From Torpedo marmorata (taxonomy: Eukaryota): a stretch of DNA of 64,000 nucleotides. The notes under the pieces were generated by a model. It had not been told where the DNA came from. It worked only from the letters and a program-made list of their open reading frames with translations, and did not search any database. Positions 5,151 to 46,922 of this stretch are shown piece after piece. The stretch covers positions 123,566,001 to 123,630,000 of the forward strand of contig OZ360226.1 of the NCBI GenBank assembly GCA_977017645.1. The letters are read 5' to 3'. Each line of letters starts with the position of its first letter. Within the stretch, counting starts at the first letter, position 1. The position numbers and the translations under genes are program-made.

Positions 5151-5507
5151 GTTATTTGTGCTCACCAACTCCATGATCCCACAACATAAGCTCAAGGAAA
5201 ATCAACTTGCCTTGCAGTCCTATGGACTCCACTCCAAATTCAACAATTAAGTAAAACCAGCCTTGGAAACTCAAACTCACCTGGTCCATCTCCGATAACA
5301 CTCTCCCCCTTCCTGGATCTCTCTGTCTCCATCTCAGGAGACAAGCTTTCCACCGACATTTACTACAAACCCTCCAACTCCCACAACTATCTGGATTACA
5401 CTTCCTCACACCCTGTCCCCTGCAAGGATTCCATCCCCTTCTCTCAATTTCTCCATCTCTGCCGCATCTGTTCCCAAGATGAGGTCTTCCAGTCCAGATC
5501 TTCTGAA

Positions 5508-6233
5508 ATGTCTGCCTTCTTCCACAAACATGGCTTCCCCTCCACCACCATCAACTCAGCCCTCACCTCCTCCATTTCCCACTCATCTGCCCTGGCCCCC
5601 TCTGCCCCCAGACGCAACAAACATAGAATCCCCCTCATCCTCACCTACCACCCCACCAGCTTCCCCATCCAACACATTATCTGCTGGAATTTCCAGCACT
5701 TACTACAGGATCCCACCACCAGACACATTTTTCCTTCTCCTCCCCTCTCGGCCTTCCGCAGGGACCGCTCCCTCCGCGATTCCCTCGTGCACTCATCCCT
5801 CTCCACCCATCGCACCCCCGGCACCTTCTCCTGTGCCCGCAGGAGGTGCAACACTTGCGCCCACACCTCCCCCCTCACCTCGGTCCGGGGCCCCAAACAG
5901 GCCTTTCAAGTGAAGCTACACTTCACTTGTACATCCAGAGAACTTATTTACTGCATCCGGTGCTCCCTTTGTGGCATTCTCTACATTGGAGAGATCGGTC
6001 GTAGATTGGGAGATCGCTTCGCTGAGCACCTCCTCTCCATCCGCAACAACAGCGACCTCCCAGTAGCCAACCATTTCAATTCCGAGTCACACTCCCACAC
6101 TCACATGTCTGTCCATGGCCTTATGTACTATCCCACCCAGACTACCCGCAAATTGGAGGAACAATATCTTATTTTCCGTCTGGGCACTCTCCAGCCAGGT
6201 GGCATTAACATTGACTTTTCTGCTTTCCACTAA
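5508..6233 (+). pseudogene. Partial PLE ORF (RT thumb plus GIY-YIG endonuclease), 241 aa
   Basis: ORF track; upstream RT portion frameshifted and truncated. Confidence 0.8.
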
Positions 6234-6420
6234 ACCTGCTTGCCTTTTCCTTCCCCTCCCCCCTCATCTGTCCTTCTTGTTTTTTTCCACCCACCCAGCC
6301 ATCCCTCCTCCCCCTCTTTGCTGCTGTCCCCTCCCTCCTTTCTCCACCTATCATCTCCTGCCTTTGCCACCCCCCCTTCCCCCCCTCACTCTTTTGTTCG
6401 GACGCCTGCCGGCATTTTTT

Positions 6421-6461
6421 CATACTTTGATGAAGGGCTCAAGCCCGAAACGTCGGTTATG
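6421..6461 (+). ncRNA. Minimal type I hammerhead ribozyme motif in PLE 3' terminal region
   Basis: catact-TTGATGA-a-GGGC-tcaa-GCCC-GAAA-cg-TC-ggttatg: core (C3 is U here), 4-bp stem II, palindromic ACGT in place of helix III, stem I catact/ggttatg with one bulge. Confidence 0.7.
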
Positions 6462-6534
6462 TATTTCTACCTTTGCTACATAAAAGACACTGTTTGACCT
6501 GCTGAGTTTCTCCAGCATTTGTGGTTTTCACTTG

Positions 6535-10247: not shown

Positions 10248-10372
10248 CATAGTCTTCTGCAGACTTCAGTAGGACTTCAGGATGTATGGATCCAAAGGCA
10301 TTACGTATGAATCTGCGCCTGCGACGCAAGTCATCTTCCCAGTAGTCCAGGCGCCAAAAATCATGTTGCTGG
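10248..10372 (-). CDS. NBEA: Internal coding exon of neurobeachin (125 bp; DUF1088-proximal region upstream of PH-BEACH)
   Basis: Minus strand: tgttttgtgttttcAG|C CAG CAA CAT GAT...GAC TAT G|GTTAGT; encodes (S)QQHDFWRLDYWEDDLRRRRRFIRNAFGSIHPEVLLKSAEDY(G). From memory, 'HDFWRLDY' and 'RNAFGS...YG' fit NBEA better than LRBA (RNPLGS). Canonical AG/GT sites; 1 nt + 41 codons + 1 nt. Confidence 0.9.
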
Positions 10373-16581: not shown

Positions 16582-18128
16582 GCAGTATTAAAGATCTGTG
16601 CAGATCAACTTACCAAGGTATTCACGGATATCTTCAATATCTCACTCCAGCAGGGCGTGGTACCCACCTGTTTCAAACAGGCGTCAATCATACCGGTGCC
16701 CAAGAAGAGTGCAGTAACCTGCCTTAACGACTATCGACCAGTTGCACTTACATCAATGGTGATGAAGTGTTTTGAAAGGCTGGTGTTAAGCATATCAGCT
16801 CCTGTCTGAGCGGTGACATGGATCCACTCCAGTTCGCCTATCACGGCAACAAGTCTACGGCGGATGCCATCTCACTGGCCCTACACAAAGCCCTGGAACA
16901 CCTGTACAGCAAAGATGCATACATCAGGATGCTCTTTATCGACTACAGTTCGGCATTTAACACCATCATCCCCTCAAAACTGATCAGCAAACTCCAAGAC
17001 CTGGGAGTTAACACCCCACTGCGTAATTGGATCATGGATTTCCTCACCTCCAGACCACAATCAGTGAAGATTGGTAAGAACTTCTCCTCCACAATCTCCA
17101 TCAGTACCGGAGCACCACAGGGCTGTGTTCTTAGCCCCCTGCTCTACTCACTTTACACCTACGACTGTGTAGCTCAGTATAACAATAACACCATCTACAA
17201 ATTTGCCGACAATACCATGGTAGTAGGTTGTATAAAGGAAGGGGATTAGTCAGCATACAGGATGGAGATTGGAAACCTGGCTGAATGGTGTACCAAAAAC
17301 AACCTTGCACTCAATGTCACCAAAACTAAGGAGCTGATTGTTGACTTCAGGAAAGGAAAGCCAGAGGTATACAATCCAGTGATCATTGGGGGATCAGGGG
17401 TGGAGAGGGTGAGCAAATTTAGGAGGATCTTTCCTGGACCCAACACACCAATGGCATCGTGAAGAAAGCACGTCAGTGCCTCTACTTCCTCAGGAGCTTG
17501 CAGAGGTTTGGTATGACACCAGAAACCCTGGCAAATTTCTACAGATGTGTGGTGGAAAGTATGCTGACCGGCTGCATCACGGTCTGGTATGGGAACACCA
17601 ATACTCCTGAGCGTAAAACCCTCCAAAAGATAGTGGACACAGCCCAGGACATTACTGGCAAAACCCTCCCCACTATTGAGTACATCAACAGGGAACGCTT
17701 CCGTCGGAGGGCAGCAGCAATCATCAAAGACCCACACCACACAGTGCACGCTCAGTTCTCGCTGCTGTCATCAGAAGAGAGGTATAGGTGCCACCAGACT
17801 CACATCACCAGGTTTAGGAACAGCTGCTACCCCTCTACCATCAGAGTCCTCAACGACAAAGTCAAATCAGAGACTCATTTAAGGACTCTTACTCGTGCAC
17901 TTTATTGATTTTTCTTTGCTCTCTCTGTATTGCACAGTCAGTTTCATTTTCAGTTTCATTTGTTACCTGTTAGCAGTTCTTTTGATTGTTTACATGTTTA
18001 CGCTGTGTACAGTTTACTTTTTGCACTACCAATTAGTGGTAATTCTGCTGTGCCCGCAGGAAAAAAGAATCGCAGGGTTGTATGTGACATCATGTATGTA
18101 CTCTGACAATAAATCTGAAATCTAAATC
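16582..18128 (+). mobile_element. Rex1/Babar LINE, 5'-truncated (RT plus 3' UTR)
   Basis: MDPLQFAY...[17 protein letters not shown]...[21 protein letters not shown]...KFADN; LALNVTKTKELIVDFRK; tail gacaataaatctgaaatct; frameshifted. Confidence 0.9.
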
Positions 18129-18771
18129 AAAGGAAATGAAGGCAACACTTTGTGGCTTTCAAGTTTGCATTTAAAGTGATTATTAATGGATCTGCTGGTG
18201 TGACATTTTAAGTCCCTGACCATTGTCTGGGAAGAAAATATTGAGAATGATAGATCAATGAGTGTGAAGCCACTATGATGACTATTGAAGCACTCATTTT
18301 GAGCTTGATCCTTCTAAATTTCCCATTCCAATGCTAAAGATCTCTAAAAGGATGACAGACTCAATGGCATGGATTATCTATGAATAGAATGCCATAATAT
18401 CAAAGTGCGAGCAGTGCATGATGATAATGGGAACTCATTTTTCATTGGAGACAGAGGGCAAAGGTTAGGTCAATGTCAGTGAATTTGAATCTCCTGCGAA
18501 TATAGCTAACCTTCTTCACCCTCATACAGGGGGAGGCAATGTTTTGTGTTTTCTTATTCATCCATGATGCAAAGGCTGCTTCTTACTTTGTGGTTTATAG
18601 TAAGTACAGACGCATCTGTTCAAAGCACTGACCCATCTCTGCCGACCATGGCCATATTGTGCTTGTTTTCCATGTGGGATTCATTATGCTATTACACTAT
18701 AGTGCCCTTACTGTGGCTGGCCGCTGGCATCAAGCTGCAAGAAGGTTTCCCTCAACAAAACATTCCTCTTT

Positions 18772-19975
18772 CTCTGCAATTCGCCTATCGTCACAATCGC
18801 TCCACAGCAGATGCAATATCACTGGCTCTCCACTCAGCTCTGGATCACCTCAAAAACAGCAATTCATACATACGGCTGCTCTTCATCGACTACAGCTCAG
18901 CCTTCAATACCATTATTCCCTCAGTGCTGGTCAAGAAGCTACAAACTTTAGGCCTCTGTACCCCTCTGCAACTGGATCCTTGACTTTCTCAACGGAAGAC
19001 CACAGTCAGTACAAATTGGAAACAACGTCTCCACCTCACTGATTATCAACACAGGCGCACCCCAAGGATGCGTGCTTAGCCCACTGCTCTACTCGTTATA
19101 CACCCATGACTGTGTGGCCAGGCACAATTCCAATGCCATCTACAAGTTTGCCGATGACACCACAGTTGTCGGCAGAATCACAAACGGCAATGAGGAAGCG
19201 TACAGGAGGGAGATAGATCAGCTCGTTGAATGGTGTAACGACAACAACCTTGCACTCAACGTCAGCAAAACCAAGGAGATGATTGTGGACTTCAGGAGGA
19301 AGTCAGGGGAACACGACCCAGTCCTCATCGAGAGCTCAGTAGTGGAGAGGGTCAAGAACTTCAAATTCCTGGGTGTCAACATCTCCGAGGATCTGTCCTG
19401 GAGCCTCAACATTGATGCAATCACAAAGAAGGCTCGCCAGCGGCTATACTTTGTGAGGTGTCTGAGGAGATTCGGTATGTCACCGAAGACTCTCGTAAAC
19501 CTCTATAGGTGTACCGTGGAGAGCATTCTGGCTGGTTCCATCACTGCCTGGTATGGAGGCGCCAACTCTCAGGACAAGAATAAACTCCAGAGGGTTGTTA
19601 ACTCGGCCTGTGACATCACAGGCACCAGACTTCACTCCATCGAGGACATCTATACGAGACGGTGTCATAAAAAGCAGCCTCTGTCCTCAAAGACCCCCAG
19701 GCCATGCCCTCTTCACTCTGCTACCATCGGGAAAAAGGTGCAGGAGCGTAAAGTCGAGCACTCAACGGCACAAGGACAGCTTCTTCCCCGCTGCCATCAG
19801 ATTCCTGAATAATCAATGAACCAAAGACACTGACTTACTTTTCGTGCACTATTATTTAGATATTTTTTTTATAGTTATGTTGTAAGATGGTTATAATATG
19901 AATGTTTGCACTATAATGCTGCTGCAAAACACCGAATTTCATGATTTGTTCACGACAATAAATTCTGATTCTGAT
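18772..19975 (+). mobile_element. Rex1/Babar LINE, second subfamily, 5'-truncated
   Basis: [15 protein letters not shown]...[14 protein letters not shown]; [13 protein letters not shown]...[10 protein letters not shown]; tail gacaataaattctgattctgat. Confidence 0.9.
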
Positions 19976-21237: not shown

Positions 21238-24200
21238 GTTGGGGAAGGTTTAAACTAGTGGGGCAGGGGAATGGGAACCTACAATGAAAAAATGAGGAAG
21301 GTGGTACAGAGACCAAAGAAAGTGTTAGGAAAAAGACAAAGAGACATAGAGGGCAGAAAAATCAAAATCAAAAGCAAAGGATACAGAAGTCACTAGATTC
21401 TAAAAGGTCAATGAGCATAAGGGCACTTTATCTGAATGCCCGCAGTATTAGAAACAAGGTTAGTGAACGAGGCGCAAATCGGTACCCAGGCATATGATTT
21501 AGTGGCCATCACAGAAACATGGCTACAAGACGACCATGATTGGGAATAAAACTTTCAAGGGTATCAGGTAGTACTAAAGGATAGACAGGATGGTAAGGGA
21601 GGAGGTGTGGCGCTCTTAATCAAGGATGAGTTCAAGGCAATAGTGAGAGACAAATATAAGATCTAAGGAACATAATGTTGAGTCCATCTGGGTGGAGATT
21701 AAGAATAACAAAGGGAAAAAAATCACTGGTGGGTGTTGTCTATCGCCCACCAAATAACAATAGTATAGTGGCACAGGCAATAAACAGAGAGATAAGTGAG
21801 GCATGTAAGAATGGAACGGCAGTTGTCGTGGGGGACTTTAACTACCACGTAGATTGGGAAAATCAAGTTGGTCGTGGGAGTCTGGAAGAAGACTTCATAG
21901 AATGCATCCGTGATAGCTTTCTTGAGCAGCATGTTAAGGAACCAACAAGAGTCAATGCTATTTTGGATCTAGTATTGTGCAATGAGATAGGTAGAGTAAA
22001 TGATGTAATAGTTAGGGACCCTCTTGGAAATAGCGATCATAGTATTAATGAATTTCTCATACAGATGGAGGGGGAAATAGTTAGATCTAAAACTAATGTA
22101 TTATGCTTAAACAGGGGAGACTATCATAGGATGAGTGAGGAATTGGTCAGCGTGGACTGGGAGCACAGGCTAGTTGGTAGAACAGTTGAGGAACAGTGGA
22201 AGATTTTCAAGGAGATTTTTCAAAATCCTCAACAAAAATATATTCCAGTTAAGAATAAGGGCAGCAAGATAGGGAAGAGTCAGCCGTGGTTAACTAAGGA
22301 AATAAAGGAGAGTATAAAATTAAAAGCTCAGGTGTACAAAGTTGCAAAGAGTAGTGGGAAACTGGAAGATTGGGAAAACTTTAAAAGACAACAAGGGACA
22401 ACAAAGCGGGTAATAAGAAAGGGGAGAATGGATTATGAAGGTAAATTGGCACAAAATATAAAAACAGATAGCAAAAATTTTTATAAATATATAAAACGGA
22501 AGAGGGTGGCTAGAGTTAACATAGGACTCTTGGAAGATGAGAAGGGGAAATTGATATTGAATAATGAGGAAATGGCCGAGGCCTTGAACAAATATTTTGT
22601 GTCAGTCTTCACGGTGGAAGACACGTCCAGCATGCTAAAGAGTGGAGATAGGGATGCGAATGTTGGTGAAGGCCTTGATAAAATAGTTGTTACAAAGGAG
22701 ATAGTAATGAACAAACTAATGGGACTAAAGCCGGAGAAATCCCCTGGTCCTGATGAAATGCATCCCAGGGTTCTGAGGGAAATGGCAGAAGTTATAGTCG
22801 ATGCATTGGTGGTCATATACCAAAATTCTCTGGATTCTGGGCAGGTCCCGGCAGATTGGAAGACAGCAAATGTCATGCCACTTTTTAAGAAGGGATGTAG
22901 GCAGAAGACTGGGAACTATCGGCCAATTAGCTTAACGTCTGTGGTTGGGAAAATGCTTGAAGCTGTCATTAAGGATGAAATAGTGAGACATTTAGAACAA
23001 AAGGGTTCAATCAGGCAGACGCAGCATGGGTTTAGGAAGGGCAGATCTTGTTTGACAAACTTGTTAGAGTTCTTTGAGGACATTATGGGTGCGGTAGATA
23101 GAGTGGAACAGGTTGATGTTGTATATTTGGATTTCCAGAAAGCGTTTGATAAGATGCCGCACAAAAGACTTATCAGTAAGTTACAGGTGAATGGAGTTCA
23201 GGGTAGTATATTGGCATGGATTGAGGATTGGTTGTCTGACAGGAGGCAGAGAGTCGGGATAAATGGGTGTTTTTCTGATTGGCAGACAGTGGTAAGTGGG
23301 GTGCTGCAGGGGTCGGTGCTGGGCCCACAACTGTTCATCATTTACATTGATGATTTGGAGGAGGGGACAAAATGTGGTGTAGCCAAGTTTGCGGATGATA
23401 CTAAATTGAGTGAAAGAGCAAATTGTACTGAGGATGTGGAGAGGCTGCAGAGGGATATAGTTAAGTTAGGTGAGTGGGCAAAGGTCTGGCAGATGGAGTA
23501 CAATGTTACTAAGTGCCAGGTTATCCACTTTGGCAAGAAAAATAAAAGAGCAGAGTATTATTTAAATGGTGAAAAGCTGCAGCATGCTGTTGTGCAGAAG
23601 GACTTGGGAGTGCTTGTGCACGAATCGCAAAACGTTGGGTTGCAGGTGCAGCAGGTTATTAAGAAGGCAAATGGAATGTTGGCCTTCATCGCTAGAGGAA
23701 TTGAATTCAGGAGCAAGGAGGTAATGTTGCAACTGTACAAGGTACTGGTAAGACTGCACCTGGAGTACTGTGTGCAGTTCTGGTCTCCATATTTGAGGAA
23801 GAATATACTGGCCTTGGAGGCAGTCCAGAGGAGGTTTACTAGGTTGATCCCTGAGATGAAGGGGTTGACTTATGATGAAAGATTAAAATGTCTGGGATTA
23901 TACTCGCTCGAGTTCAGAAGAATAAGAGGAGATCTTATAGAAACATATAGAATTATGAAGGGGATGGATAGGATAGAGGTAGGAAGGTTTTTTTCACTGG
24001 CGGGTGAGACCAAAACTAGGGGACGCAGCCTCAAGATTCGGGGGAGTAGATTTAGGACAGAGATGATGAAAAACAGTTTTTCCCAAAGAGTGGTGAATTT
24101 GTGGAATTCTCTACCCAGGGAAGTGGTTGAGGCTGCTTCATTGAACATATTTAAGGTTCAGTTGGACAGATGTTTACATAAAAAAGGAATTAGGGGATAT

Positions 24201-24325
24201 GGGGAAAGGGCAGGTAGGAGGAGTTAGGTCATTGATCAGATCAGCCATGATCTTATTGAATGGCGGAGCAGGCTTGATGGGCCGGTTGGCCTACTCCTGT
24301 TCCTAATTTCTTATGTTCTTGTGTT
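21238..24325 (+). mobile_element. Nearly complete CR1 ORF2 element, inserted antisense into an older CR1
   Basis: Starts near the end of ORF1 (gttggggaaggtttaaactag); endonuclease N-terminus (LYLNARSIRNK, AITETWLQ) frameshifted; long ORF to 24227; tail ggcctactcctgttcctaatttcttatgttcttgtg. Confidence 0.92.
21675..24227 (+). pseudogene. CR1 ORF2 (APE endonuclease C-half plus reverse transcriptase), 850 aa, N-terminally frameshifted
   Basis: VYRPP, VVGDFN, LDLVL, SDH (EN); NYRPISLTS, QHGF, YLDFQKAFDK, LQGSVLGP (usual P is L), FADD (RT). Confidence 0.88.
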
Positions 24326-31789: not shown

Positions 31790-33330
31790 CTGTAGACACA
31801 ATGGTTGAAGTAAAAAACACAAATGCTGGAGAAACTCAGCAGGTCAAACAGTGTCTTTTATGTAGCAAAGGTAGAAATACATAACTGACGTTTCGGGCTT
31901 GAGTCCTTCATCAAAGTATGAGAAAATGCCGGCAGGCGTCCGAACAAAAGAGTGAGGGTGGGAAGGGGGAGGTGGCAAAGGCAGGAGATGATAGGTGGAG
32001 AAAGGAGGGAGGGGGAAGCAGCAAAGAGGGGGAGGAGGGATGGCTGGGTGGGTGTAAAAAAACAGGAAGGACAGGTGAGGGGGGAGGGGAAGGAAAAGAC
32101 AAGCAGGTTTAGTGGAAAGCAGAAAAGTCAATGTTAATGCCATCTGGCTGGAGAGTGCCCAGACGGAAAATGAGATGTTGTTCCTCCAATTTGCGGGTAG
32201 TCTGGGTGGGATAGTACATAAGGCCATGGACATACATGTGAGTATGAGAGTGTGACTCGGAATTGAAATGGCTGGCTACTAGGAGGTCGCTGTTGTTGCG
32301 GTCAGAGAGGAGGTGCTCAGCAAAGCGATTTCCCAATCTACGACCGGTCTCTCCGACGTAGAGAAAGCCACAAAGGGAGCACCGGATGCAGTAAATAAGT
32401 TCTCTGGATGTACAAGTGAAGTGTAGTTTCACTTGAAAGGCCTGTTTGGGGCCCCAGACCGTGGTGAGGGGGGAGGTGTGGGCGCAGGTGTTGCACCTCC
32501 TGCAGGCACAGGGGAAGGTGCCGGGGGTGTGATGGGTGGGGAGGGATGAGTGCACGAGGGAATCGCGGAAATAGCGGTCCCTGCGGAAGACCGAGAGGGG
32601 AGGAGAAGGAAAAATGTGTCTGGTGGTGGGATCCTGTAGTAAGTGCCGGAAATTCCGGCGGATAATGTGTTGGATGCAGAGGCTGGTGGGGTGGTAGGTG
32701 AGGATGAGGGGGATTCTATGTTTGATGCGTCTAGGGGCAGAGGGGGCCAGGGCAGATGAGCGGGAAATGGAGGAGATGCGGGTGAGGGCTCAGTTGATGG
32801 TGGTGGAGGGGAAGCCATGTTTGTGAAAGAAGGCAGACATTTCAGAAGATCTGGACTGGAAGACCTCATCTTGGGAACAGATGCGGCAGAGATGGAGAAA
32901 TTGAGAGAAGGGGATGGAATCCTTGCAGGGGACAGGGTGTGAGGAAATGTAGTCCAGATAGTTGTGGGAGTTGGAGGGTTTGCAGTAAATGTCGGTGGAA
33001 AGCTTGTCTCCGGAGATGGAGACAGAGAGATCCAGGAAGGGGAGCGTGTTATCAGAGATGGACCAGGTGAGTTTGAGATCAGGGTGGAAGTTAGATGCGA
33101 AGTGGATGAAGTTGACAAGCTCATCGCGGGTGCATGAGGATGCCCCGATGTAGTCGTCGATATAACGGAGGTAGAGATGAGGGGTCTTGCCTGTGCAGGC
33201 TTGCAACATGGATTGCTCCACAAAGCCCACAAACAGGCAGGCGTAGCTGGGACCCATGCGGGTACCCATGGCTACTCCTTTGATTTGGAGGAAGTGGGAT
33301 GAGTTGAAGGAGAAGTTATTGAGAGTGAGG
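31790..33330 (-). mobile_element. Penelope-like element, same subfamily as 5265-6532
   Basis: RT (GVAMGTRMGPSYACLF, YLRYIDDYIG, LPFLDL), GIY-YIG (LIYCIRCSLCGFLYVGETGRRLG), near-identical UTR and tail; frameshift near 32790. Confidence 0.9.
31880..31920 (-). ncRNA. Minimal hammerhead ribozyme motif (PLE)
   Basis: Reverse complement: catact-ttgatga-a-ggac-tcaa-gccc-gaaa-cg-tc-agttatg; one stem II mismatch. Confidence 0.6.
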
Positions 33331-34069
33331 ACAACTATTGTGTGTTGGTTCTGTGTTAAAATGATACAACGGCATTCACAAACTCTACAGAATGAGTTGC
33401 TGAGATGCTGGGCTAACTCATTCATGATGGAAAAGCTTATTCTCTGAAGATGTATCCATAGTCATGTTCTTTAAATTAGATGTCTCTTGCCTGTTGTGTC
33501 TCGCTCAGTGTGGCAATATTGATATCAGAGCATCATTTAGGTCTGTCACTGTGAGGATTGTCCTTGAGAGTCTTGATATTACAGGCTTCAAACTGAATAT
33601 GGTGGACTGTAAGATGTTTCTTTTAACATGGAATAACTGTTGAACACCAGCCAGCAAAGGGGTCTAATGCCAACCCTTCCAATTATCTACTAAACACAAA
33701 GTTTTGAATTAGCTAGACCAATGCAATACTCAACCAAATATATGCCAGAGAGAATGGCAACCTCATTATAATTAGTAAATCTTCTTTAAATGGGACAATA
33801 AAAAATTTAAATATCAACTGAACTAGGAATTTTATCAGTGTCGGAAAGGTTGTGCTGAGATTAAATTTAAACATCCAAGATACCCAATTATAAAGACTTA
33901 ATTAACATTCCATAAAGATGTTCACTGCTTCAGTAACCATCTTCTCACTTGCACTAATTAAGATATTGAGAAGGTATCTATTAAATTTGGATCAAAGTTG
34001 CAACTTTACACATTTTAATCCAGACATTTTAATTGAATTGATGACTATTAAAACTAACCTTTATCCTAG

Positions 34070-37249: not shown

Positions 37250-37497
37250 TGTGGTAAACCACTTTATATGTATTGTGGCCTGAGGCAGGTATGACCATGA
37301 CCTGTCTGTCTGTCCCGGTGACCCCTCCCCTTTTACCTGGAATAAAGGCCTTGAGCCCGCAACTCCTCCCCCAGTTCCGGGACAATCCAGCAGGGATCAT
37401 CAGGTCAGGTCATAGTCAGCCCTGGCTTGATTCTGCTAATAAAAGCCTGTTAATTCCTGCACTTCTAGACTCGTGTTGGTTATTGATAGGTACGTCA
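37250..37497 (+). repeat. 5' LTR of Gypsy element 1
   Basis: tgtggtaaaccac...aggtacgtca; direct repeat of 41733-41980. Confidence 0.97.
37341..37375 (+). promoter_or_regulatory. Putative LTR core promoter (TATA-like gAATAAAg plus Inr-like cAGT)
   Basis: AATAAA at 37341 and the A of cagt at 37373 (32 nt); same spacing in the divergent element 2 LTR (42544, 42576). Confidence 0.5.
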
Positions 37498-37498
37498 A

Positions 37499-37510
37499 TT
37501 TTATTAGCAG
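37499..37510 (+). other. Non-tRNA PBS-position motif complementary to the LTR
   Basis: ttttattagcag, 1 nt after the LTR end, is the exact reverse complement of ctgctaataaaa at 37433-37444. Confidence 0.8.
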
Positions 37511-37528
37511 TTTCAACGAAAACGATCA

Positions 37529-40500
37529 ATGGAAAATTTGTTGAAGCCAGACAAGCTGGACATCGACCCCCTGGCCCAAGACGCTGCCAGCGATTTCGAA
37601 CTTTGGCAACGCTGCTTCTTAGCCTACATGAGATCGTCTGGAGCAACTACGGACGAGCAGAAACTCGATATCCTCATGTCCAGGGAAAGCAAGCGAGTGT
37701 ATGGCGCCGTCAGAGACTGTAAGACTTTCGATGATGCCTTGGTCGCCCTCCAAACGCTGTACCTGACGCCCGCGAACGAGATTTTTGCAAGGCACCGGAT
37801 ATCGCAGCGGTACCAGCGCCCCGGAGAATCGGTCTCCGAGTACATCCAAGACGTGATGTTAATGGTGCGAGCGTGTGCATGTCGAGCCCTGACGGCTGAG
37901 CAACACTCCGAGATGCTGGCAAGGGACACTATTATAAAAGGGATCAGGTCAGGCTACATTCGCCAGCGATTGCTGGAACACGCTGACCTGACCCTGAAAT
38001 CGACTGTCCAGAACATCCTGAATCTGGACTCAGCCCTGAAGAACGCTGACGCTATGCAGGCTCAGCCTGTGTCTTGGATCGCCCCAGCCGTCAGCCCTAC
38101 AAGCAACGCGACCGCCGCTGCCGTCTACCGGGACCCGCTTGCCGCCGCCGACGCTATCCGTGAGTTGGCCGCTGCCCGAGAGCCCGCCGCTACCTGTGAG
38201 TTAACCGCTGCCGCTATCTCCCGGGAGCCCGAGAAGTGCTACTTCTGCGGGCTCGACAAGCACCCGCGCAAGCGCTGCCCGGCCCGAGACGCGACTTGTT
38301 CTAGCTGTGGCAAGAAAGGCCACTACGCTAAGGTCTGCCGCTCCAAGTCGCGCACGGGTCCGAGCAGCGCCGCGTGCGAGGTACGGGAGCGGCCATCTTC
38401 CTCGACTCCACTTCCGGCGGAGACCTCGTGCGAGGTCTGGAGGCGGCCATCACGGCGCACCGCACATCCGGTTTCCAGCGGCGCCACGTGCGACGGGAGG
38501 GGGCGGCCATCTTGCATGACGTCACTTCCTGCGGGGACCTCGTGCGAGGACTGGAGGCGGCCATTTCCGATCGCTACATTTCCGGCGCGGCCATTTTGTA
38601 ATCTCACCGCAGCACTTCCAGCACTTCCAGCTCCATCCTTCCATAGCGACACATATGAGCTACGGGAACTACCAACGGATCAAGACGTCTCGTCGGATCA
38701 AGACTCCGTCTCGACCCTCTCGTCGGATCAAGACTCCGTTTCGACCCTGGCATCTGTGACGCTGGACCAGAGCGCGCCCCATCAACTGTCCAGGTCGATG
38801 ATGGACATCTTCGTTGAGGGGCATAAGACCACCTGCCTGTTCGACACAGGCAGTACTGAAAGCTTTATTCATCCGGACACTGCCCAGCGCTGTGGCCTCA
38901 CCATTGTACCGGTAAGCCAGAGGGTGGCCATGGCGTCTGGAACGCACACAACAGACATCCGGGGGGGTTGTGTGGCGAATATAGTGGTACAGGGCACGGA
39001 ATACCGAGAATTTTCAATGTTAATCATGCCTCGTTTGTGTGCTCCTGTACTGCTAGGGTTGGACTTCCAAAGCCACCTGCGTAGCGTCACCATGCACTAC
39101 GATGGGCCCCACCCCCCAATCGTAGTGACTAACCCCCAATACACTAACACGCCCCAGACTACCTGTGGTCTCTCCACGCTAAAGACCCAACCCCCGCCAC
39201 TCTTCGCCAACCTGACCCCTGACTGTAAGCCCATCGCAACTAAAAGCAGGCGATACAGTACAGGGGACAGGGCATTTATTAAGGCGGAGGTGCAGCGTTT
39301 ACTGGGGGAAGGGATCATTGCACCCAGCAATAGCCCCTGGAGAGCTCAGGTAGTGGTGGTGAAGAACGGGGCTAAGAGCCGGATGGTGGTGGACTATAGT
39401 CAGACCATCAACCGGTTCACACAACTGGACGCCTATCCGCTGCCAAAGATCGCGGATATGGTCAACCAGATTGCCCAATTTAAAGTGTTCTCCACCATCG
39501 ATCTTAAGTCGGCGTACCATCAGCTCCCGATCCGCCGGGAGGACCGAGTATACACCGCTTTCGAGGCGGACGGCAGATTATTCCATTTTCTGCGCGTCCC
39601 CTTCGGGGTAACAAATGGGGTATCCGTGTTCCAAAGGGAGATGGACAGGATCATTGACCAGTTCAAGCTCACTGCCACCTTCCCGTACCTGGACGACATC
39701 ACCATCTGTGGTCATGACCGCCAGGATCACGATAGGAACCTTCGGAAGTTCTTACAGGCGGCCGAGACGCTGAACCTCACATATAATAAGGAGAAATGCG
39801 TGTTCGGGACTACCCGACTCGCTATCCTGGGGTGCGTCGTGGAAAACGGGGTGATTGGACCCGACCCCGACCGCATGCGCCCCCTGTTGGAACTTCCGAT
39901 CCCCGTTACCCCCAAAGCACTCAAACGATGCCTCGGGTTTTTCTCCTATTATGCGCAGTGGGTCCCCAACTACTCGGACAAAGCCCGACCCCTCGTCAAG
40001 TCCACCAAGTTTCCCCTTGCAGCGGAGGCACGTGAGGCTTTCGACCTCATAAAAGGGGACATCGCCCGAGCAGCGATGCACGCGGTGGACGAGTCGGAAC
40101 CTTTCCAGGTGGAGAGTGACGCCTCGGACTTCGCACTGGCTGCTACTCTCAACCAGGCGGGAAGACCGGTAGCGTTTTTCTCCCGCACCCTTCAAGGCCC
40201 CGAAATTCGGCACTCCGCGGTAGAGAAAGAGGCCCAAGCCATTGTCGAGGCTGTTCGGCATTGGAGGCACTATCTCGCCGGGAAACATTTTACCCTGCTG
40301 ACGGACCAGCGCTCCGTCGCTTTCATGTTTAACTGCCAGCAGCGGGGTAAAATTAAAAATGACAAGATCATGAGGTGGAGGATAGAGCTCTCCACCTACA
40401 ATTACGACATCATTTACCGGCCCGGGAAGCTCAACGAGCCCCCTGACGCTCTATCCCGGGGATCATGCGCCAGCGCGCAGATCGACCGATTATACTCCCT

Positions 40501-41632
40501 CCATAACGACCTCTGCCACCCAGGAGTTACCAGGCTGTTCCATTTCATTAAAGCACGGAACCTGCCTTTCTCCCTGGACGAGGTCAAGACCATGACCAGC
40601 AGCTGCCGAGTCTGTGCGGAATGCAAACCGCAGTACTACCGCCCCGACAGAGCACAGCTGGTCAAAGCCACCCGCCCGTTCGAACGTCTCAGTATAGACT
40701 TCAAGGGCCCCCTTCCATCCACAAACCGCAATGTGTACTTTCTTAATATCATCGATGAGTACTCGCGGTTCCACTTTGCCATCCCCTGCCCAGATACCTC
40801 GGCGGCGTCGGCTATCAAGGCTCTCCACCAGGTTTTCACCGTGTTCGGGTTCCCCAGCTACATCCACAGCGACCGGGGGTCCGCGTTCATGAGTGGGGAG
40901 CTGCGACAGCACTTGCAGACCCGAGGCATCGCTACCAGCAGGACCACGGGGTACAACCCACGGGGGAACGGACAGGTGGAGAGGGAGAACGCCACAGTAT
41001 GGACAGCGACACTACTGGCCCTCAAAGCAAAAGGGTGGCCAGTGGCTCGCTGGCAGGAGGTTCTCCCGGACGCCCTCCACTCTATACGATCCCTCTTATG
41101 TACCGCCACTAACACTACCCCTCACGAGCGTATCTTTTCCTTCCCCAGGAAATCGACCACTGGAACTACACTCCCTGCCTGGCTGACGTCCCCGGGGCCC
41201 GTGCTACTCCGCAAACATCTTCGGAGTAGCAAGTACGAGCCCTTAGTCGAGAGGGTGCAGCTGATCCACGCGAACCCGCAATACGCATTCGTTGTTCTCC
41301 CCGACGGGCGGGAGGACACGGTGTCAATACGGGACCTGGCGCCTGCAGGAGCGTCTGAAGAGGTCCCCGACAGCGGAAACACCGGGTCGCAGCTGCCCCC
41401 TCCGGACCATCAGCCTCCCAGCACGACGTTGTCTCCGTCACAGCTGGTCTGGCCACTAGCCAGGCAGGAGGTGAACCACCCTACTGTACCTACTCCCACT
41501 CCACAGCCACTACCACCTCCGCAGGTACCACAATTTCCTACCCGTACCCTCATTCCACAACCATTACCATCACCGCTGACGCTACGCAGGTCACGGCGGC
41601 ACATCCGGCCGCCGGCGAAACTCGACCTGTAA
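37529..41632 (+). CDS. Gypsy Gag-Pol polyprotein, 1367 aa (Gag with two CCHC knuckles, PR, RT, RNase H, IN)
   Basis: CYFCGLDKHPRKRC and CSSCGKKGHYAKVC; PR LFDTGS; RT IDLKSAYHQL/VPFG/YLDD; RH ESDASD/EKEAQA/LTDQ; IN HNDLCH..CRVC, SIDFKG, HSDRGS, QVERENA; Gypsy order RT-RH-IN; no chromodomain or env. Confidence 0.96.
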   Translation: MENLLKPDKLDIDPLAQDAASDFELWQRCFLAYMRSSGATTDEQKLDILMSRESKRVYGAVRDCKTFDDALVALQTLYLTPANEIFARHRISQRYQRPGESVSEYIQDVMLMVRACACRALTAEQHSEMLARDTIIKGIRSGYIRQRLLEHADLTLKSTVQNILNLDSALKNADAMQAQPVSWIAPAVSPTSNATAAAVYRDPLAAADAIRELAAAREPAATCELTAAAISREPEKCYFCGLDKHPRKRCPARDATCSSCGKKGHYAKVCRSKSRTGPSSAACEVRERPSSSTPLPAETSCEVWRRPSRRTAHPVSSGATCDGRGRPSCMTSLPAGTSCEDWRRPFPIATFPARPFCNLTAALPALPAPSFHSDTYELRELPTDQDVSSDQDSVSTLSSDQDSVSTLASVTLDQSAPHQLSRSMMDIFVEGHKTTCLFDTGSTESFIHPDTAQRCGLTIVPVSQRVAMASGTHTTDIRGGCVANIVVQGTEYREFSMLIMPRLCAPVLLGLDFQSHLRSVTMHYDGPHPPIVVTNPQYTNTPQTTCGLSTLKTQPPPLFANLTPDCKPIATKSRRYSTGDRAFIKAEVQRLLGEGIIAPSNSPWRAQVVVVKNGAKSRMVVDYSQTINRFTQLDAYPLPKIADMVNQIAQFKVFSTIDLKSAYHQLPIRREDRVYTAFEADGRLFHFLRVPFGVTNGVSVFQREMDRIIDQFKLTATFPYLDDITICGHDRQDHDRNLRKFLQAAETLNLTYNKEKCVFGTTRLAILGCVVENGVIGPDPDRMRPLLELPIPVTPKALKRCLGFFSYYAQWVPNYSDKARPLVKSTKFPLAAEAREAFDLIKGDIARAAMHAVDESEPFQVESDASDFALAATLNQAGRPVAFFSRTLQGPEIRHSAVEKEAQAIVEAVRHWRHYLAGKHFTLLTDQRSVAFMFNCQQRGKIKNDKIMRWRIELSTYNYDIIYRPGKLNEPPDALSRGSCASAQIDRLYSLHNDLCHPGVTRLFHFIKARNLPFSLDEVKTMTSSCRVCAECKPQYYRPDRAQLVKATRPFERLSIDFKGPLPSTNRNVYFLNIIDEYSRFHFAIPCPDTSAASAIKALHQVFTVFGFPSYIHSDRGSAFMSGELRQHLQTRGIATSRTTGYNPRGNGQVERENATVWTATLLALKAKGWPVARWQEVLPDALHSIRSLLCTATNTTPHERIFSFPRKSTTGTTLPAWLTSPGPVLLRKHLRSSKYEPLVERVQLIHANPQYAFVVLPDGREDTVSIRDLAPAGASEEVPDSGNTGSQLPPPDHQPPSTTLSPSQLVWPLARQEVNHPTVPTPTPQPLPPPQVPQFPTRTLIPQPLPSPLTLRRSRRHIRPPAKLDL
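38385..38600. promoter_or_regulatory. Repeated YY1/ETS/CRE/E-box motif cassette inside the gag-PR linker
   Basis: GCGGCCAT at 38389, 38443, 38503, 38557, 38587; CACTTCCGG at 38409; CACGTG at 38485; TGACGTCACTTCCTG at 38517-38531. Confidence 0.5.
38691..38750 (+). repeat. 30-bp in-frame tandem duplication before the protease
   Basis: cgtcggatcaagactccgt(c/t)tcgaccct x2, encoding SDQDSVSTL twice. Confidence 0.85.
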
Positions 41633-41732
41633 ACGAAGATAATTGTATATATTCTATGTATATGTGTTTTTTTTTCTCCCTACGGTATCCACTTCACCCC
41701 CCCGTCGGACTTGTTCTAAAAGAAGGGGTGAA

Positions 41733-41980
41733 TGTGGTAAACCACTTTATATGTATTGTGGCCTGAGGCAGGTATGACCATGACCTGTCTGTCTGTCCCG
41801 GTGACCCCTCCCCTTTTACCTGGAATAAAGGCCTTGAGCCCGCAACTCCTCCCCCAGTTCCGGGACAATCCAGCAGGGATCATCAGGTCAGGTCATAGTC
41901 AGCCCTGGCTTGATTCTGCTAATAAAAGCCTGTTAATTCCTGCACTTCTAGACTCGTGTTGGTTATTGATAGGTACGTCA
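41733..41980 (+). repeat. 3' LTR of Gypsy element 1
   Basis: Direct repeat of 37250-37497, preceded by the PPT and followed by TSD cttct. Confidence 0.97.
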
Positions 41981-42449
41981 CTTCTTGAGTACAGTTTTTT
42001 GCACTCCAATAAGTGGTAATTCTGCTTCGTCCGCAGGAAAAAGAATCTGAGGGTTATGTGATGTCATGTATGTACTCCGACAATAAATCTGAACTTTGAA
42101 CCTCGGGGTTCCAGTTCACTGTTCCCTGAAAATGGCTACACAGGTAAGTAGGGTGATGAAGAAGGCACATGGGATGCTTGCATATGTCAGGGCACAGAAT
42201 GTAAGAGTTGGGATGTTACGTTGAAATTTTAAACACTGATTGGCAAAACCTGAAGTATTGTGTGTAATTCTGATTGGCAAACATTAGGAAGGATGTAATT
42301 GTACTGGAGAGCGCAAAGGAGATTCACCAGGATATTGTTTGAATTGGAGGAATTAAGTTATGAAGAGAGATTGAATAAGCCGGACTTGTTTTCACTTGAA
42401 TGATGGAGGCTGAGGAGTGAACTCATAGAAGTACTCAAGATTATGAGAG

Positions 42450-42683
42450 TGTGGTAAACCACTTTGTATAGGTTGTGGCTGGGTGATATGTCTGGACATG
42501 CCCTCTGCTGACTGTCCCGATGGCTCCTCCCACAGACCCCCTGAATAAAGACCATTGTGCCACCACTCCTCCCCCAGTCCGGGACAGATTACCAGCACGG
42601 ATGTAGCTCCATTATTTTGCTAATAAAAGCCTTTCAGTTCAAGAACAACTTCTAGTCTTTTGAATTTATTGATGGGCTCATCA
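42450..42683 (+). repeat. 5' LTR of Gypsy element 2
   Basis: tgtggtaaaccac...gggctcatca. Confidence 0.93.
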
Positions 42684-42706
42684 ATTTTATTAGCAAAATT
42701 GTAAGC

Positions 42707-45700
42707 ATGGAGAATGTCTTGAGACCAGACAAACTGGACCTCGATTCACAAACACCAGTGGCCGGCAACGCTTTTGAACTCTGGCTAGCCTGCTTTGAGT
42801 CGTTCCTGGAGGAGATCAAGGTACAAGAAGACGCTGCAAAATGCAAGGTCCTCCTCTCTAGGGTAAGCCCACGAGTCTACTCCATGATCCGAGATCTGCA
42901 GACTTACGAAGACGCCATGAATGCCCTTAAAAGACAATATATACGGCCTGTTAATACGGTATATGCACGACACGGCAGCAGCGGCCCGGGGAGTCGAGCA
43001 CTGAGTTCGTCTGCGCCCTACAGACACTCGTGCGGGCCTGCGACTGCCAGGGATTGACGGCCGAACAACACGCGGAGCTTCCAGTAAGAGACGCTTTCGT
43101 TACGGGGACCAGGTTGGTGTATGTGTGCCAGCGGCTGCTGGAACAAGCTGACCTCACCTTCCGTTCGGCGATAGAGCTGGCCGATACACTGGAGGCCTCG
43201 TTGCAGAACGATGCTATCCAGGCGCGCGATCTCCCGCCGGCTCCGTGGATACCGCAGACCCCACACCACGCTGGTGAATCGACCACAGCTGCTGTCAGCC
43301 GCGAGTCTGAGAAATGATACTTCTGCGGACTCGAAAAGCACCCCCGGAAACGTTGCCCGGCCCGAGAAGCGACCTGCTCCAGCTGCGGGAAGAAAGGCCA
43401 TTTCGCCAAGGTCTGTAGGTCTAAACCGCGAGCGGATTCAAGCAGCGCCGCGTGCGAGGCATGGGGGTCGCCATTGTTGCCGTTGCCATCTTGCCCGTCC
43501 GCCGCCACCACGTGTGAGACATGGGGTGGCCATCTTGTGTGTCGTCACTTCCGTCGCTGCCATCTTACTTAACCGCGGCCAACACGTGAGAGTCATGGGA
43601 GCGGCCATTTTGTTCGACGCCATCGCGCCGACACAGGGTGCCGCCATCCCAGAACACCAGGCACTCCATCGCGTCGGATCAAAGCAGCGACCCACGGGTG
43701 CCGCCAACCCGGAACACCCGGCACTCCATCGCGTCGGATCAAGACAGCGACTCAACGTTGGCATCCGTTACACTCAACCAGAGTGCACCCCACCAACTTG
43801 CGAGGTCGATGATGGACATCCTGGTCGAGGGACACAGGACAAACTGCCTGTTCGACATGGGCAGCACAGAGAGCTTCATCCACCCAGACACTGCACAGCG
43901 ATGTGGCCTCACGATACAGCTGGTAGGCCAGAGGGTTGCCATGGCTTCTGGGTCGTACACAACAGACATCCGGGGGGGTTGTGTAGCGACGCTAGTGGTG
44001 CAGGACACTGAATATCGGGACTTTACGCTATTGGTCACGCTATTGTGTGCCCCTGTACTACTGGGGCTCGACTTCCAGAGTCACCTCCAAAGTGTGACAA
44101 TGGAGTATGACGGGCCCTTTCCACCAATTACTGTCGGTAACCACCAATTTCTCAAAAACAGCAGACGTATTTCGTCACACCACAATACTTGCGGCCTATC
44201 CACCCTCAAGATCCCGCCCCAACGCTGTTCGCCAATCTGACCCCTGATTGTAAACCCCTGGCAACCAAAAGCAAGAGATACAGTGCAGGGGACAGGGACT
44301 TCATTAAGTCAGAGGTGCAGCGGTTACTTGGGGAAGGGTACATTGAGGCGAGCACGAGTCCCTGGAGGCCCCAGGTGGTTGTCATCAAGAACGGGGAGAA
44401 AAATAGGATGATGGTAAATTATAGTCAGAACATCAATAGGTTCACACAGCTTGACGCGTACCCTCTCCCATGCATTACAGATATGGTGAACCAGATACCT
44501 CAGTACAAGCTATTCTCCACCATAGACCTCAAACCTGCCTACCATCAGCTCCCCATCCGCCGGGAGGACCGCACCAACACCGCTTTCGAGGCGGATGGCA
44601 GGCTCTATCACTTCCTGCGTGTCCCTTTCGGGGTCACAAATGCAGTATCCGTCTTCCAGAGGGAGATGGACAGGATGGTGGACCAGTGCAAATTAAAGGC
44701 CACGTTCCCATACCTAGACAACATTACTATCTGCGGTCACGACCGGCAGGACCATAATAACAATCTGCGAAAGTTCCTCCAAGCGGCCAAAGCACTTAAT
44801 CTCACCTATAACAAGGATAAGTGTGTGTTCAGAACCACCCTACTCGCTATCCTGGGGTGCGTTGTGGAGAACGGGGTCATCGGCCCCGACCCCGACCGCA
44901 TGCGCCCCCTGCTGGAACTACCGCTTCCCCACACCTCAGAGCCCTCAAAAGGTGCTTGGGCTTCTTTTCGTACTATGCACAATGGGTCCCTAATTATGCG
45001 GACAAGGCCCGCCCCCTAGTCAAGTCCACCACTTTTCCCCTCGCAGCGGAGGCACGCGAGGCCTTCAGCCTCATAAAAGGGGACATTGCCAGAGCAGCAA
45101 TGCACGCGGTGGACGAGTCCACTCCCTTCCAAGTGGAGAGCGACACATCCGACTTCGCACTGGCTGCTACCCTCAACCAGGCGGGAAGACCGGTGGCGTT
45201 TTTCTCCCATACCCTTCAAGGCCCAGAAATTCGGCACTCAGCGGTGGAGAAAGAGGCCCAGGCCACAGTGGAAGCTATCAGGCACTGGAGGCACTATCTC
45301 GCCGGCAAAAGGTTTACCCTGCTGACTGACCAGCGCTCAGTCGCATTTATGTTCAGCAACCAGGGTAAAAATCAAAAATGATGAAATCCTGAGGTGGAGA
45401 ATTGAACTCTCCACCTACAACTATGACATAATGTACTGGCCCGGGAAGCTCAACGATGCTCTATCCCGGGGAACATGCGCCAGCGCACAGATCGACCGAT
45501 TATATGCCCTCCACTGCGACCTCTGCCACCCTGGAGTCACCCGGCTTTTCCACTTTGTGAAAGCCCGTAACTTGCCGTACTCCCTGGAAGAGGTCAGGAC
45601 GATGACCAGGAGCTACCAAGTCTGCACAGAGTGCAAACCGCACTTCTACGGACCTGACAAGGCACAATTGATAAAAGCAACCCGCCCATTCGAGCGACTG

Positions 45701-46610
45701 AGCTTCGACTTTAAGAGCCCCTCCCTTCCACTGACCGCAATGTGTACTTTCTCAACGTCATTGACGAGTACTCGTGGTTCCCTTTTGCCATTCCCTGCCC
45801 CGATACCACTACCACTTCGGTCATAAAAGCACTACGCAAACTCTTCACATTGTTTGGATACCCCTGCTATATCCATAGCGACCGAGGGTCCTCGTTTATG
45901 AGTGACGAGCTGCGCCAATACCTGCTGGCCAGGGGTATCGCGACTAGCAGGACCACGAGTTATAACCCCCTGGGGAATGGACAAGTGGAGAGAGAGAACG
46001 CCACGGTCTGGAAGGCTACACTCTTAGCCCTCAGGTCTAAGGGATTACCAGTCTCCCGCTGGCAAGAAGTCCTTCCCGAGGCACTCCACTCCATCCGTTC
46101 CCTGCTATGCACATCCACCAATGCCACCCCCCATGAGAGACTCTTTTCCTTCCCCAGGACGTCGACCACCGGGACTACCCTACCAGCATGGCTGACGTCC
46201 TCAGGGCCAGTGCTGCTCCAGAAACATGTCAGGAGCAATAAATACACCCTGATGGTCGAGAGGGTTCAACTACTACATGCGAACCCCCAGTACGCCTACG
46301 TGGTTTTTCCTGATGGACGGGAAGACACGGTCTCCATCCGGGACTTGGCGCCCGCAGGAGCACTGGAGCCCACCCCCGTACATTCCATGGTTACTGTCAC
46401 CCCCGCACCTACCATTAGAGACACACAGGAGGCACCACCCAATTCAAACCTGACACCAAACGAGACCCCCGTACTGGCATACACACACGAGGTTTTACGG
46501 ATGCCAGACATGCTGGTACCCCAAATCAGGCAGGAGGCAGCACCGCCGCCTGCCCCATCACCACAAGTACCGCGCCGATCATAGCGGTGGACTCGACCGC
46601 CTGATTGACT
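42707..46610 (+). pseudogene. Disrupted Gag-Pol of element 2
   Basis: ORF fragments 42707-43057, 43030-43317, 43638-44240 (PR), 44189-45019 (RT), 44821-45381 (RH), 45431-45826 and 45742-46584 (IN). Confidence 0.9.
43635..43755 (+). repeat. ~60-bp tandem duplication before the protease in element 2
   Basis: gggtgccgcca.ccc.gaacacc.ggcactccatcgcgtcggatcaa x2. Confidence 0.8.
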
Positions 46611-46688
46611 CTACCTGTAATTTGTAATTTCTTTGTAAATATTGTTACACCCTTCACCCCGTGGGACTCTTTTAAAAGGAGGGGTGAA

Positions 46689-46922
46689 TGTGGTAAACCA
46701 CTTTGTATAGGTTGTGGCTGGGTGAGATGTCTGGACATGCCCTCTGCTGACTGTCCCGGTGGCTCCTCCCACAGGCCCCCTGAATAAAGGCCATTGTGCC
46801 ACCACTCCTCCCCCAGTCCGGGACAGATTACCAGCACGGATGTAGCTCCATTATTTTGCTAATAAAAGCCTTTCAGTTAAGTACAACTTCTAATCTTTTG
46901 AAGTTATTGATGGGCTCATTCA
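46689..46922 (+). repeat. 3' LTR of Gypsy element 2
   Basis: Direct repeat of 42450-42683, followed by TSD gagag. Confidence 0.93.

Follow-up and report, generated by a model that had tools for sequence, protein, structure and literature searches.

Promoter-type DNA words within the Gag-protease linker of Ty3/Gypsy retrotransposons from sharks and rays: a candidate intragenic regulatory module

Regulatory DNA inside the reading frames of retrotransposons is already known. The internal regulatory region of the yeast element Ty1 lies within the gag coding sequence. In this long terminal repeat (LTR) retrotransposon, activator sites for Rap1, Mcm1 and Tea1 have been described in the interior, downstream from the 5' LTR (PMC10968565), and antisense RNAs are reported to initiate in gag (PMC7175516). 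Similarly, regulatory DNA overlaps open reading frame (ORF) 1 of mouse L1, where synonymous recoding destroys it (PMC3985663). Here, a related arrangement is described in 64,000 nucleotides of Torpedo marmorata DNA (GCA_977017645.1, contig OZ360226.1, positions 123,566,001 to 123,630,000 of the forward strand), hereafter the window, to which all coordinates refer. Two Ty3/Gypsy LTR retrotransposons in the window, termed elements 1 and 2, carry a tandem array of promoter-type words in the linker that separates the zinc knuckles of Gag from the protease, and it is probably these DNA words, rather than the peptide, that selection keeps, to judge from the sequence comparisons below.

The locus differs from each of its closest counterparts. 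Whereas Ty1 belongs to the Ty1/copia group, inhabits a yeast without DNA methylation and has sites that form no tandem array, the present elements belong to a vertebrate Gypsy clade and place vertebrate CpG-island words in an apparently purpose-expanded linker. Mouse L1 is a non-LTR element whose antisense promoter has been shown experimentally to limit mobility, while the present module is known from sequence alone; the main text of that report makes no mention of YY1 (PMC3985663). Retroelements that exploit YY1 are described, namely human L1 with its YY1 site and endogenous retroviruses (ERVs) with YY1 sites in their LTRs (PMC10879037, PMC10968565), although these sites lie in the 5' untranslated region (UTR) or LTR, are non-coding and are mostly single. 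The linker also resembles CpG-island promoters, whose grammar comprises the overlap of ETS and cAMP response element (CRE) sites, YY1 words including the translation initiator of short 5' UTRs (TISU), GABPA, SP1 and MYC, since its GC content is 0.67 and its CpG observed-to-expected ratio exceeds 1.1; unlike such promoters, the cassette overlaps a coding frame, stands roughly 1 kb away from the predicted start and is repeated four times. From 37601 to 38800, GC content (0.54-0.67) and CpG ratio (0.98-1.18) exceed the thresholds for CpG islands (GC above 0.5 and ratio above 0.6 over at least 200 nt), but this is not specific to the cassette, because most of the young element passes them too. As far as titles and the openings of abstracts reveal, with few subscription papers and few Repbase notes among them, no tandem, clade-wide, vertebrate housekeeping-type cassette in an expanded Gypsy Gag-protease linker was found in the literature.

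The cassette occupies the Gag-protease linker of both elements and is built from a unit in which an E-box variant, a G-rich box and a YY1 word follow one another, joined in this subfamily by an ETS word. In element 1, 21 bp separate the start of the E-box from GCCAT, with the G-rich box before GCCAT, and the ETS word follows 18 bp further. The parts of the two linkers are as follows.

38371..38418, plus strand: unit 1, with CGCGTG at 38371, GGGAGCGG at 38385, GCCATCTT at 38392 and ACTTCCGG at 38410
38425..38472, plus strand: unit 2, with CTCGTG at 38425, GGAGGCGG at 38439, GCCAT without TT at 38446 and ACATCCGG at 38464
38485..38532, plus strand: unit 3, with CACGTG at 38485, GGGGGCGG at 38499, GCCATCTT at 38506 and the CRE-ETS overlap TGACGTCACTTCCTG at 38517
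38539..38598, plus strand: unit 4, with CTCGTG at 38539, GGAGGCGG at 38553, GCCATTT at 38560, ATTTCCGG at 38578 and an additional GCCATTTT at 38590
38630..38750, plus strand: second linker repeat, acidic, with a 30-nt period, a CGGATCAAGAC word and high third-position identity to element 2
43444..43625, plus strand: cassette of element 2, with CGCGTG at 43449, CACGTG at 43509 and 43583, CGTCACTTCCG at 43543 and four GCCATNTT words, interrupted by a frameshift and a stop

An earlier note, made from the letters of the window, had drawn attention to this region, and every promoter-type word that it placed is present at its position. The five YY1 words that it counted in element 1 exist as GCGGCCAT, starting at 38389, 38443, 38503, 38557 and 38587, while only three of them reach the full GCCATNTT; the repeats of 54/60 nt that it described correspond to steps of 54, 60, 54 and 30 nt, although Tandem Repeats Finder made no call of a 54/60 period. 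In addition, CACTTCCGG occurs at 38409. The YY1-type words of element 2 are GCCATCTT at 43485, 43529 and 43559 and GCGGCCATTTTG at 43601, and its linker, said to be differently arranged, contains in fact the same unit in the same frame and provides no independent arrangement. The common orientation of the YY1 words is confirmed, with GCGGCCAT occurring six times on the plus strand and never on the minus strand in 64 kb, always within the two linkers; the form GCCAT[CT]TT is found seven times on the plus and never on the minus strand inside the two elements, and nine times on each strand in the whole window. The KMAA repeats reported for the antisense frames read, in element 1, EMAA, KMAA, VMAA and KMAA.

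The window has seven E-box positions, each of which reads CACGTG, CGCGTG or CTCGTG. Read as CACGTG, CACGCG and CACGAG, they match MYC/MAX sites, which are reported to include CACGTG and the non-canonical CACGCG and CACGAG (PMC5515408). The four ETS positions of element 1 encode the peptides PLPA, AHPV, SLPA and TFPA, yet all match A[CT][AT]TCC[GT]G, a relaxed form whose variants we take to be valid binding sites. Moreover, the CRE-ETS overlap TGACGTCACTTCCTG agrees in 14 of 15 letters with the ETS-CRE word CCGGAAGTGACGTCA (PMC3464117), whose core CGGAAGTGACG is present in element 2; a full CRE occurs once. An NRF1-like word stands at 38266 and is missing from element 2, a CGGATCAA word is found in the second linker repeat of both elements (38630-38750 and 43629-43751), and BANP and ZNF143 words are absent from the 64-kb window.

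The motifs are real and exceed chance. Under three null models of synonymous-codon shuffling, each with 20000 shuffles that preserve the peptide, element 1 contains three GCCATNTT words where 0.03-0.77 are expected (p 5e-5 to 0.002) and four relaxed ETS words where 0.22-0.69 are expected (p 5e-5 to 0.001), and element 2 contains four GCCATNTT words (0.03-0.71 expected) and two CACGTG (0.11-0.20 expected). No significant excess was obtained for the CRE half-site (p 0.19-0.59), the relaxed ETS word does not occur in element 2, and two of three nulls for the lone CACGTG in element 1, as well as five of six for the CpG count, give no significance. These p-values count tandem copies as independent, and the frame shuffled in element 2 slips within the stretch; because the units are duplicates, the p-values are too small, and tests independent of copy number were therefore sought.

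When the two elements are compared, fourfold-degenerate third positions are identical at 25 of 29 sites in the linker versus 249 of 476 elsewhere (Fisher p 3.6e-4), where composition alone predicts identities of 0.31 and 0.28, respectively; across the first 28 linker codons, which align almost without gaps, 12 of 14 such sites are identical. Amino-acid identity is 44% in the linker and 76% elsewhere. By codon position, linker identity is highest at third positions (0.75, versus 0.71 at first and 0.64 at second), while the order outside it is reversed (0.55, 0.84 and 0.88). The proportion of synonymous differences (pS) reaches 0.63-0.66 in Gag, knuckles, protease, reverse transcriptase (RT) and integrase and 0.42 in RNase H, and the zinc knuckles, with a pS of 0.65 and a proportion of nonsynonymous differences (pN) of 0.08, evolve under purifying selection of the ordinary kind. 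When the units of element 1 are compared with one another, all four together give a pN/pS of 1.23. Factor words within a coding region under probable DNA-level constraint are what an intragenic enhancer of the Ty1 kind calls for.

The expanded linker with its unit is confined to one clade. From a set of 298 proteins, 163 could be parsed and placed in a quick, midpoint-rooted tree; 36 of them have a long linker, and 31 of these form a single clade (Shimodaira-Hasegawa-like approximate likelihood ratio test, SH-aLRT, 100) with seven deep branches, the other five lying elsewhere in the tree and lacking the unit. Named members come from the sharks and rays Hypanus, Mobula, Hemitrygon, Narcine, Scyliorhinus and Mustelus, and named short-linker relatives come from corals, nematodes, a sea cucumber and a sea slug. 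A scan of viral contigs gave nine pattern matches with no relative among them, and none of the 79 loci from a metagenome scan has a long clade-type linker.

If GCCATNTT is fixed and read as x-Pro-Ser/Phe-y, residue y must have a codon that starts with T. Among 20 hand-picked in-frame proteins from seven sub-lineages, this is the case in 49 of 65 distinct linker contexts, against 19.7 expected, while the controls give 16 of 50 for sites outside the linker of these proteins and 120 of 374 for 127 relatives with short linkers. The excess is seen in six of the seven branches, whose representatives share 33-48% Gag identity, and rises to 29 of 33 in strict units (17 of 19 outside rays), where y is S, W, C, Y or L, residues that are chemically dissimilar (mean BLOSUM62 -1.8). 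Moreover, 27 of 33 strict units have T, A, S or M in front of the cysteine (background 0.37), which is what the E-box variants lead one to expect. Of 185 proteins examined, 4 annotated clade copies with frameshifts carry these words read in another frame, as AAIL, AAIF, SAIL, RHLG and HHVR. Contigs of three organisms part from the window sequence once the last T of GCGGCCATCTT is passed, with an ETS word following at equal spacing. The unit number and the linker length vary widely across relatives. The proposal that selection acts on the DNA motifs rather than the peptide is supported by silent-site conservation and by this residue test, whereas the YY1/ETS/CRE cassette as originally named stands in part: E-box plus YY1 is the clade-wide core, ETS-frame peptides occur in some lineages only and the full CRE occurs once. 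As a peptide-only observation, the Scyliorhinus linkers P0002 and P0147 contain six VTSG repeats, which is what an ETS or CRE-ETS word would encode in another frame; in short linkers, TSG was counted twice over a total of 2644 aa.

The LTR and the region following it, where transcription of the element is predicted to begin, comprise these features.

37250..37498, plus strand: 5' LTR of element 1, about 245-250 nt, with TG...CA ends
37433..37444, plus strand: 12 nt complementary to the primer-binding position, spanning the poly(A) signal, with the predicted sense transcript start
37499..37511, plus strand: primer-binding position, self-complementary to the LTR and without a recognisable tRNA site

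The most likely main job of the DNA words, with a probability of about one half, would be that of an intragenic enhancer driving the 5' LTR. The 5' LTR of element 1 contains no GCCATNTT, ETS, CACGTG or GGGCGG word, and the CpG observed-to-expected ratio of the LTR is 0.33 in element 1 and 0.23 in element 2, compared with 1.13 and 1.10 in the respective linkers; the LTR of element 2 likewise has none of the words. An internal enhancer is plausible and fits an LTR so poor in motifs. By analogy with Tf1 (PMC7175516), the complementarity between LTR and primer site places the predicted sense start near 37433, about 950-1170 nt upstream of the cassette. The linker would thus be dual-coded, serving as protein as a disordered spacer between knuckles and protease that may tolerate almost any residue, and as DNA as a tandem array of E-box variant, G-rich box and YY1 word, with ETS words and a single CRE. 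Putative binders are bHLH-ZIP (basic helix-loop-helix leucine zipper) factors such as USF or MYC/MAX, SP/KLF factors, YY1, GABPA-type ETS factors and CREB/ATF, which, once bound, would enhance the short, CpG-poor LTR promoter. Such an internal placement would favour the 5' LTR of full-length copies over 3' LTRs and solo LTRs. The module may have been gained once, on the stem of a clade living in the heavily methylated genomes of sharks and rays. Tentatively, and somewhat less probably than the enhancer role by itself, a Gypsy lineage of invertebrate type could have expanded its linker into a protein-coded mimic of a housekeeping promoter upon entering methylated vertebrate genomes; this mimic would now give most of the transcriptional drive, or act as a bidirectional internal promoter, replacing the LTR, while the array was repeatedly turned over and the word order and the 21-bp spacing from E-box to YY1 were kept across shark and ray lineages.

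Several points weigh against an enhancer role or against selection on the words. The motifs are consensus words and not matrices, the linker alignment is gapped and of low complexity in a region selected after inspection, and the DNA compared covers both copies in the window plus four loose-end consensuses, with other lineages being assessed via peptides. Fourfold third positions are identical between the elements at 10 of 12 sites in the second linker repeat, which has no known factor word. The Mustelus/Narcine branch is at chance for T-starting codons (4 of 12, 4.0 expected), peptides of the AAI-L/F type also occur by chance in three non-clade proteins, and a single GCCATNTT lies within a short linker at seven near-identical loci. 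Peptides of the ETS frame are found in only some lineages, in a different frame in one, and most Hypanus, Mobula, Mustelus and unnamed-lineage linkers lack them. Six residues ahead of P-S/F, 29 of 57 contexts have Cys, while Trp, the residue that would preserve CACGTG, appears once; this preponderance makes a peptide role of the unit's cysteine possible. Regarding the factors, YY1 and MYC have been classed as non-opening and GABPA and SP1 as opening (bioRxiv 10.64898/2026.05.04.722487), YY1 is reported to be strongest just downstream of the start rather than 1 kb away (PMC13017510), and repression by YY1 is also described (PMC10968565). The first two of these reports make the enhancer reading less secure and leave room for a local promoter.

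An antisense or bidirectional internal promoter, in which minus-strand AAGATGGC and CCGGAAGT would start transcripts running back through gag and either limiting the element or entering host genes, appears unlikely, although it has precedents in mouse L1 ORF1 (PMC3985663) and in the antisense RNAs of Ty1 gag (PMC7175516). Downstream YY1/TISU words of the form AAGATGGC are described as strictly one-directional, while the majority of YY1 sites have no constant position or orientation (PMC2518114), and transcription can start at GABPA-bound distal sites (bioRxiv 10.64898/2026.05.04.722487). The shared orientation of the words carries little weight, because tandem copies of a single unit kept in one reading frame are expected to share it. 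A neurobeachin-family host exon does lie on the minus strand, but since the host context differs with each insertion, its direction cannot account for conservation across the clade; moreover, a search with the antisense frame of 81 aa against 153 candidate proteins of 143-2000 aa gave no match at E<=10, which is weak evidence. That the array shields insertions from methylation in the germ line is considerably less probable. The CpG observed-to-expected ratio is high in gag (1.03 and 0.97) and in the linker values given above, versus 0.85 and 0.65 in pol and 0.33 in the window outside both elements, and short-linker relatives of a CpG-poor host reach 0.68-0.72; YY1-bound L1s are reported to be less methylated in embryonal cells (PMC10879037) and the transposons of a cartilaginous fish to be hypermethylated (PMC5437953). 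However, CpG islands of the axolotl are described as highly methylated (PMC7618676), so that CpG richness alone proves little. The anti-methylation role suggested in the earlier note is not supported, as CpG-type change is equally frequent in the cassette region and in pol: the polarity of CpG-to-TpG/CpA change between the elements is 12:4 in the core and 45:16 in pol (p 1.0), CpGs lost versus shared amount to 12:38 and 45:82 (p 0.16), and among the replacements that separate 14 close Hypanus proteins from one natural copy, 10 of 31 in knuckles plus linker, 13 of 46 in Gag and 15 of 43 in protease-RT are of CpG type, all three comparisons having low power.

The remaining explanations concern the protein, descent and the RNA. 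It is doubtful, and only a little less so than a role in methylation, that the peptide repeat C-x5-P-S/F was conserved for metal binding, assembly or the timing of cleavage, with the DNA words as by-products of descent. Apart from the cysteine at -6, Trp stands at -3 in 21 of 57 contexts and the spacing is fixed in all seven lineages; nevertheless, the Trp position is also filled by Arg (12 of 47) and Gly (4 of 47), which have only NGG in common, no Pfam family exceeds its cut-off on the linker, and the pN/pS among units, the preferential keeping of third positions and the variable unit number and linker length do not suit a constrained peptide. Neutral tandem expansion of a GC-rich unit that happened to contain a YY1-like word is highly improbable: the copies are of common ancestry, pN near pS among units also fits neutrality and one such word is found in short linkers too, but the words remain intact between elements whose silent sites elsewhere are near saturation, and the signature recurs in six of seven lineages despite their low Gag identity. 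LTR elements often keep cis signals in this region, and the words are strand-specific and of a single orientation, as a signal in RNA or cDNA for packaging, dimer formation or the integration complex might be. This explanation is equally improbable, given that a 275-nt stretch folds no better than its shuffles (z +1.35; 186 of 200 shuffles fold at least as well) and that words for four factors of double-stranded DNA in fixed order suit promoter grammar better.

If the intragenic enhancer is real, an LTR retrotransposon would have adapted to vertebrate gene control without a longer LTR, by placing host promoter words in a tolerant part of its protein. The clade would then offer a natural, many-times-resampled library of spacing rules for E-box, YY1 and ETS sites, a case of dual coding that is legible even in protein databases, and elements from which dispersed enhancers or cryptic promoters might arise in the genomes of sharks and rays.

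The primer site of these elements deserves separate mention. Immediately following the 5' LTR, 11-16 nt pair as reverse complement with a stretch of the LTR itself, located 51-72 nt ahead of its end and spanning the poly(A) signal, in both elements of the window (element 2: 42451-42700) and in five of nine loci tried (L002, L004, L006, L020 and L007), with letters that differ between lineages; at L021 the match is 8 nt, at L005 there is none, and at L011 and L047 no LTR pair was found. Complementarity of LTR and primer site is also known from Tf1 (PMC7175516), and its presence suggests Tf1-like self-priming, masking of the 5' poly(A) signal, or both, in a lineage without a chromodomain. In structure, the elements resemble Mag-like Ty3/Gypsy elements, which have short LTRs, a 5-nt target duplication and often one ORF (PMC3286476). 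Unlike the Mag lineage, for which tRNA-Leu, -Ser or -Arg primers are described, the present elements have a post-LTR sequence that lacks the TGG start and is complementary to the LTR, no comparison with a tRNA set having been made.

The remaining features of the elements and their surroundings are listed below.

37529..41632, plus strand: single Gag-Pol ORF of element 1, 1367 aa, encoding Gag, two CCHC knuckles, linker, protease, RT, RNase H and integrase
38234..38341, plus strand: the two CCHC zinc knuckles
41733..41981, plus strand: 3' LTR of element 1, from LTR pairing
42451..46920, plus strand: element 2, a decayed member of a sister subfamily, with frameshifts and stops
10258..10372, minus strand: neurobeachin-family host exon (DUF1088; PF06469, E 1.1e-15)

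Element 1 (37250-41981, plus strand) is a Ty3/Gypsy LTR retrotransposon, with paired TG...CA LTRs, a 5-nt target duplication (CTTCT), the order protease (aa 426-513), RT (612-770), RNase H (833-957) and integrase (1048-1144), no env, and an ORF that stops about 100 nt before the 3' LTR. Its LTRs are 100% identical across 251 nt and its 1367-aa frame is unbroken, and it is therefore a very recent insertion; the LTRs of element 2 differ at seven positions and one gap over 235 nt. The best protein relatives are from rays and sharks and, together with the CpG depletion of the window outside the elements, point very probably to a cartilaginous fish as host. Element 1 was inserted into another repeat, and its two flanks are connected in contigs of run X3.

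Two Hypanus proteins named after host genes (P0083 and P0084) were considered as host chimeras and rejected, as they consist of element sequence only. In the Narcine gene models P0211, P0299 and P0300, Gag, knuckle and linker stand in the middle of a zinc-finger host protein, reflecting either exonisation or an annotation artefact; because the element sequence in P0211 is sense and lies mid-protein, it says nothing on promoters. In the window, the acceptor AG of the neurobeachin-family exon stands immediately before 10372, and 28 kb separate this exon from the cassette; both LTR elements are antisense to it, which is the orientation usual for intronic LTR elements. Other repeats comprise a near-identical inverted pair at 5190-6533 and 31808-33461, presumably Penelope-like, an 855-aa RT frame at 21660-24227, which we take to be CR1-like, and RT fragments at 17000-19800, probably Rex/L2-like, the family names being assigned from the translations.

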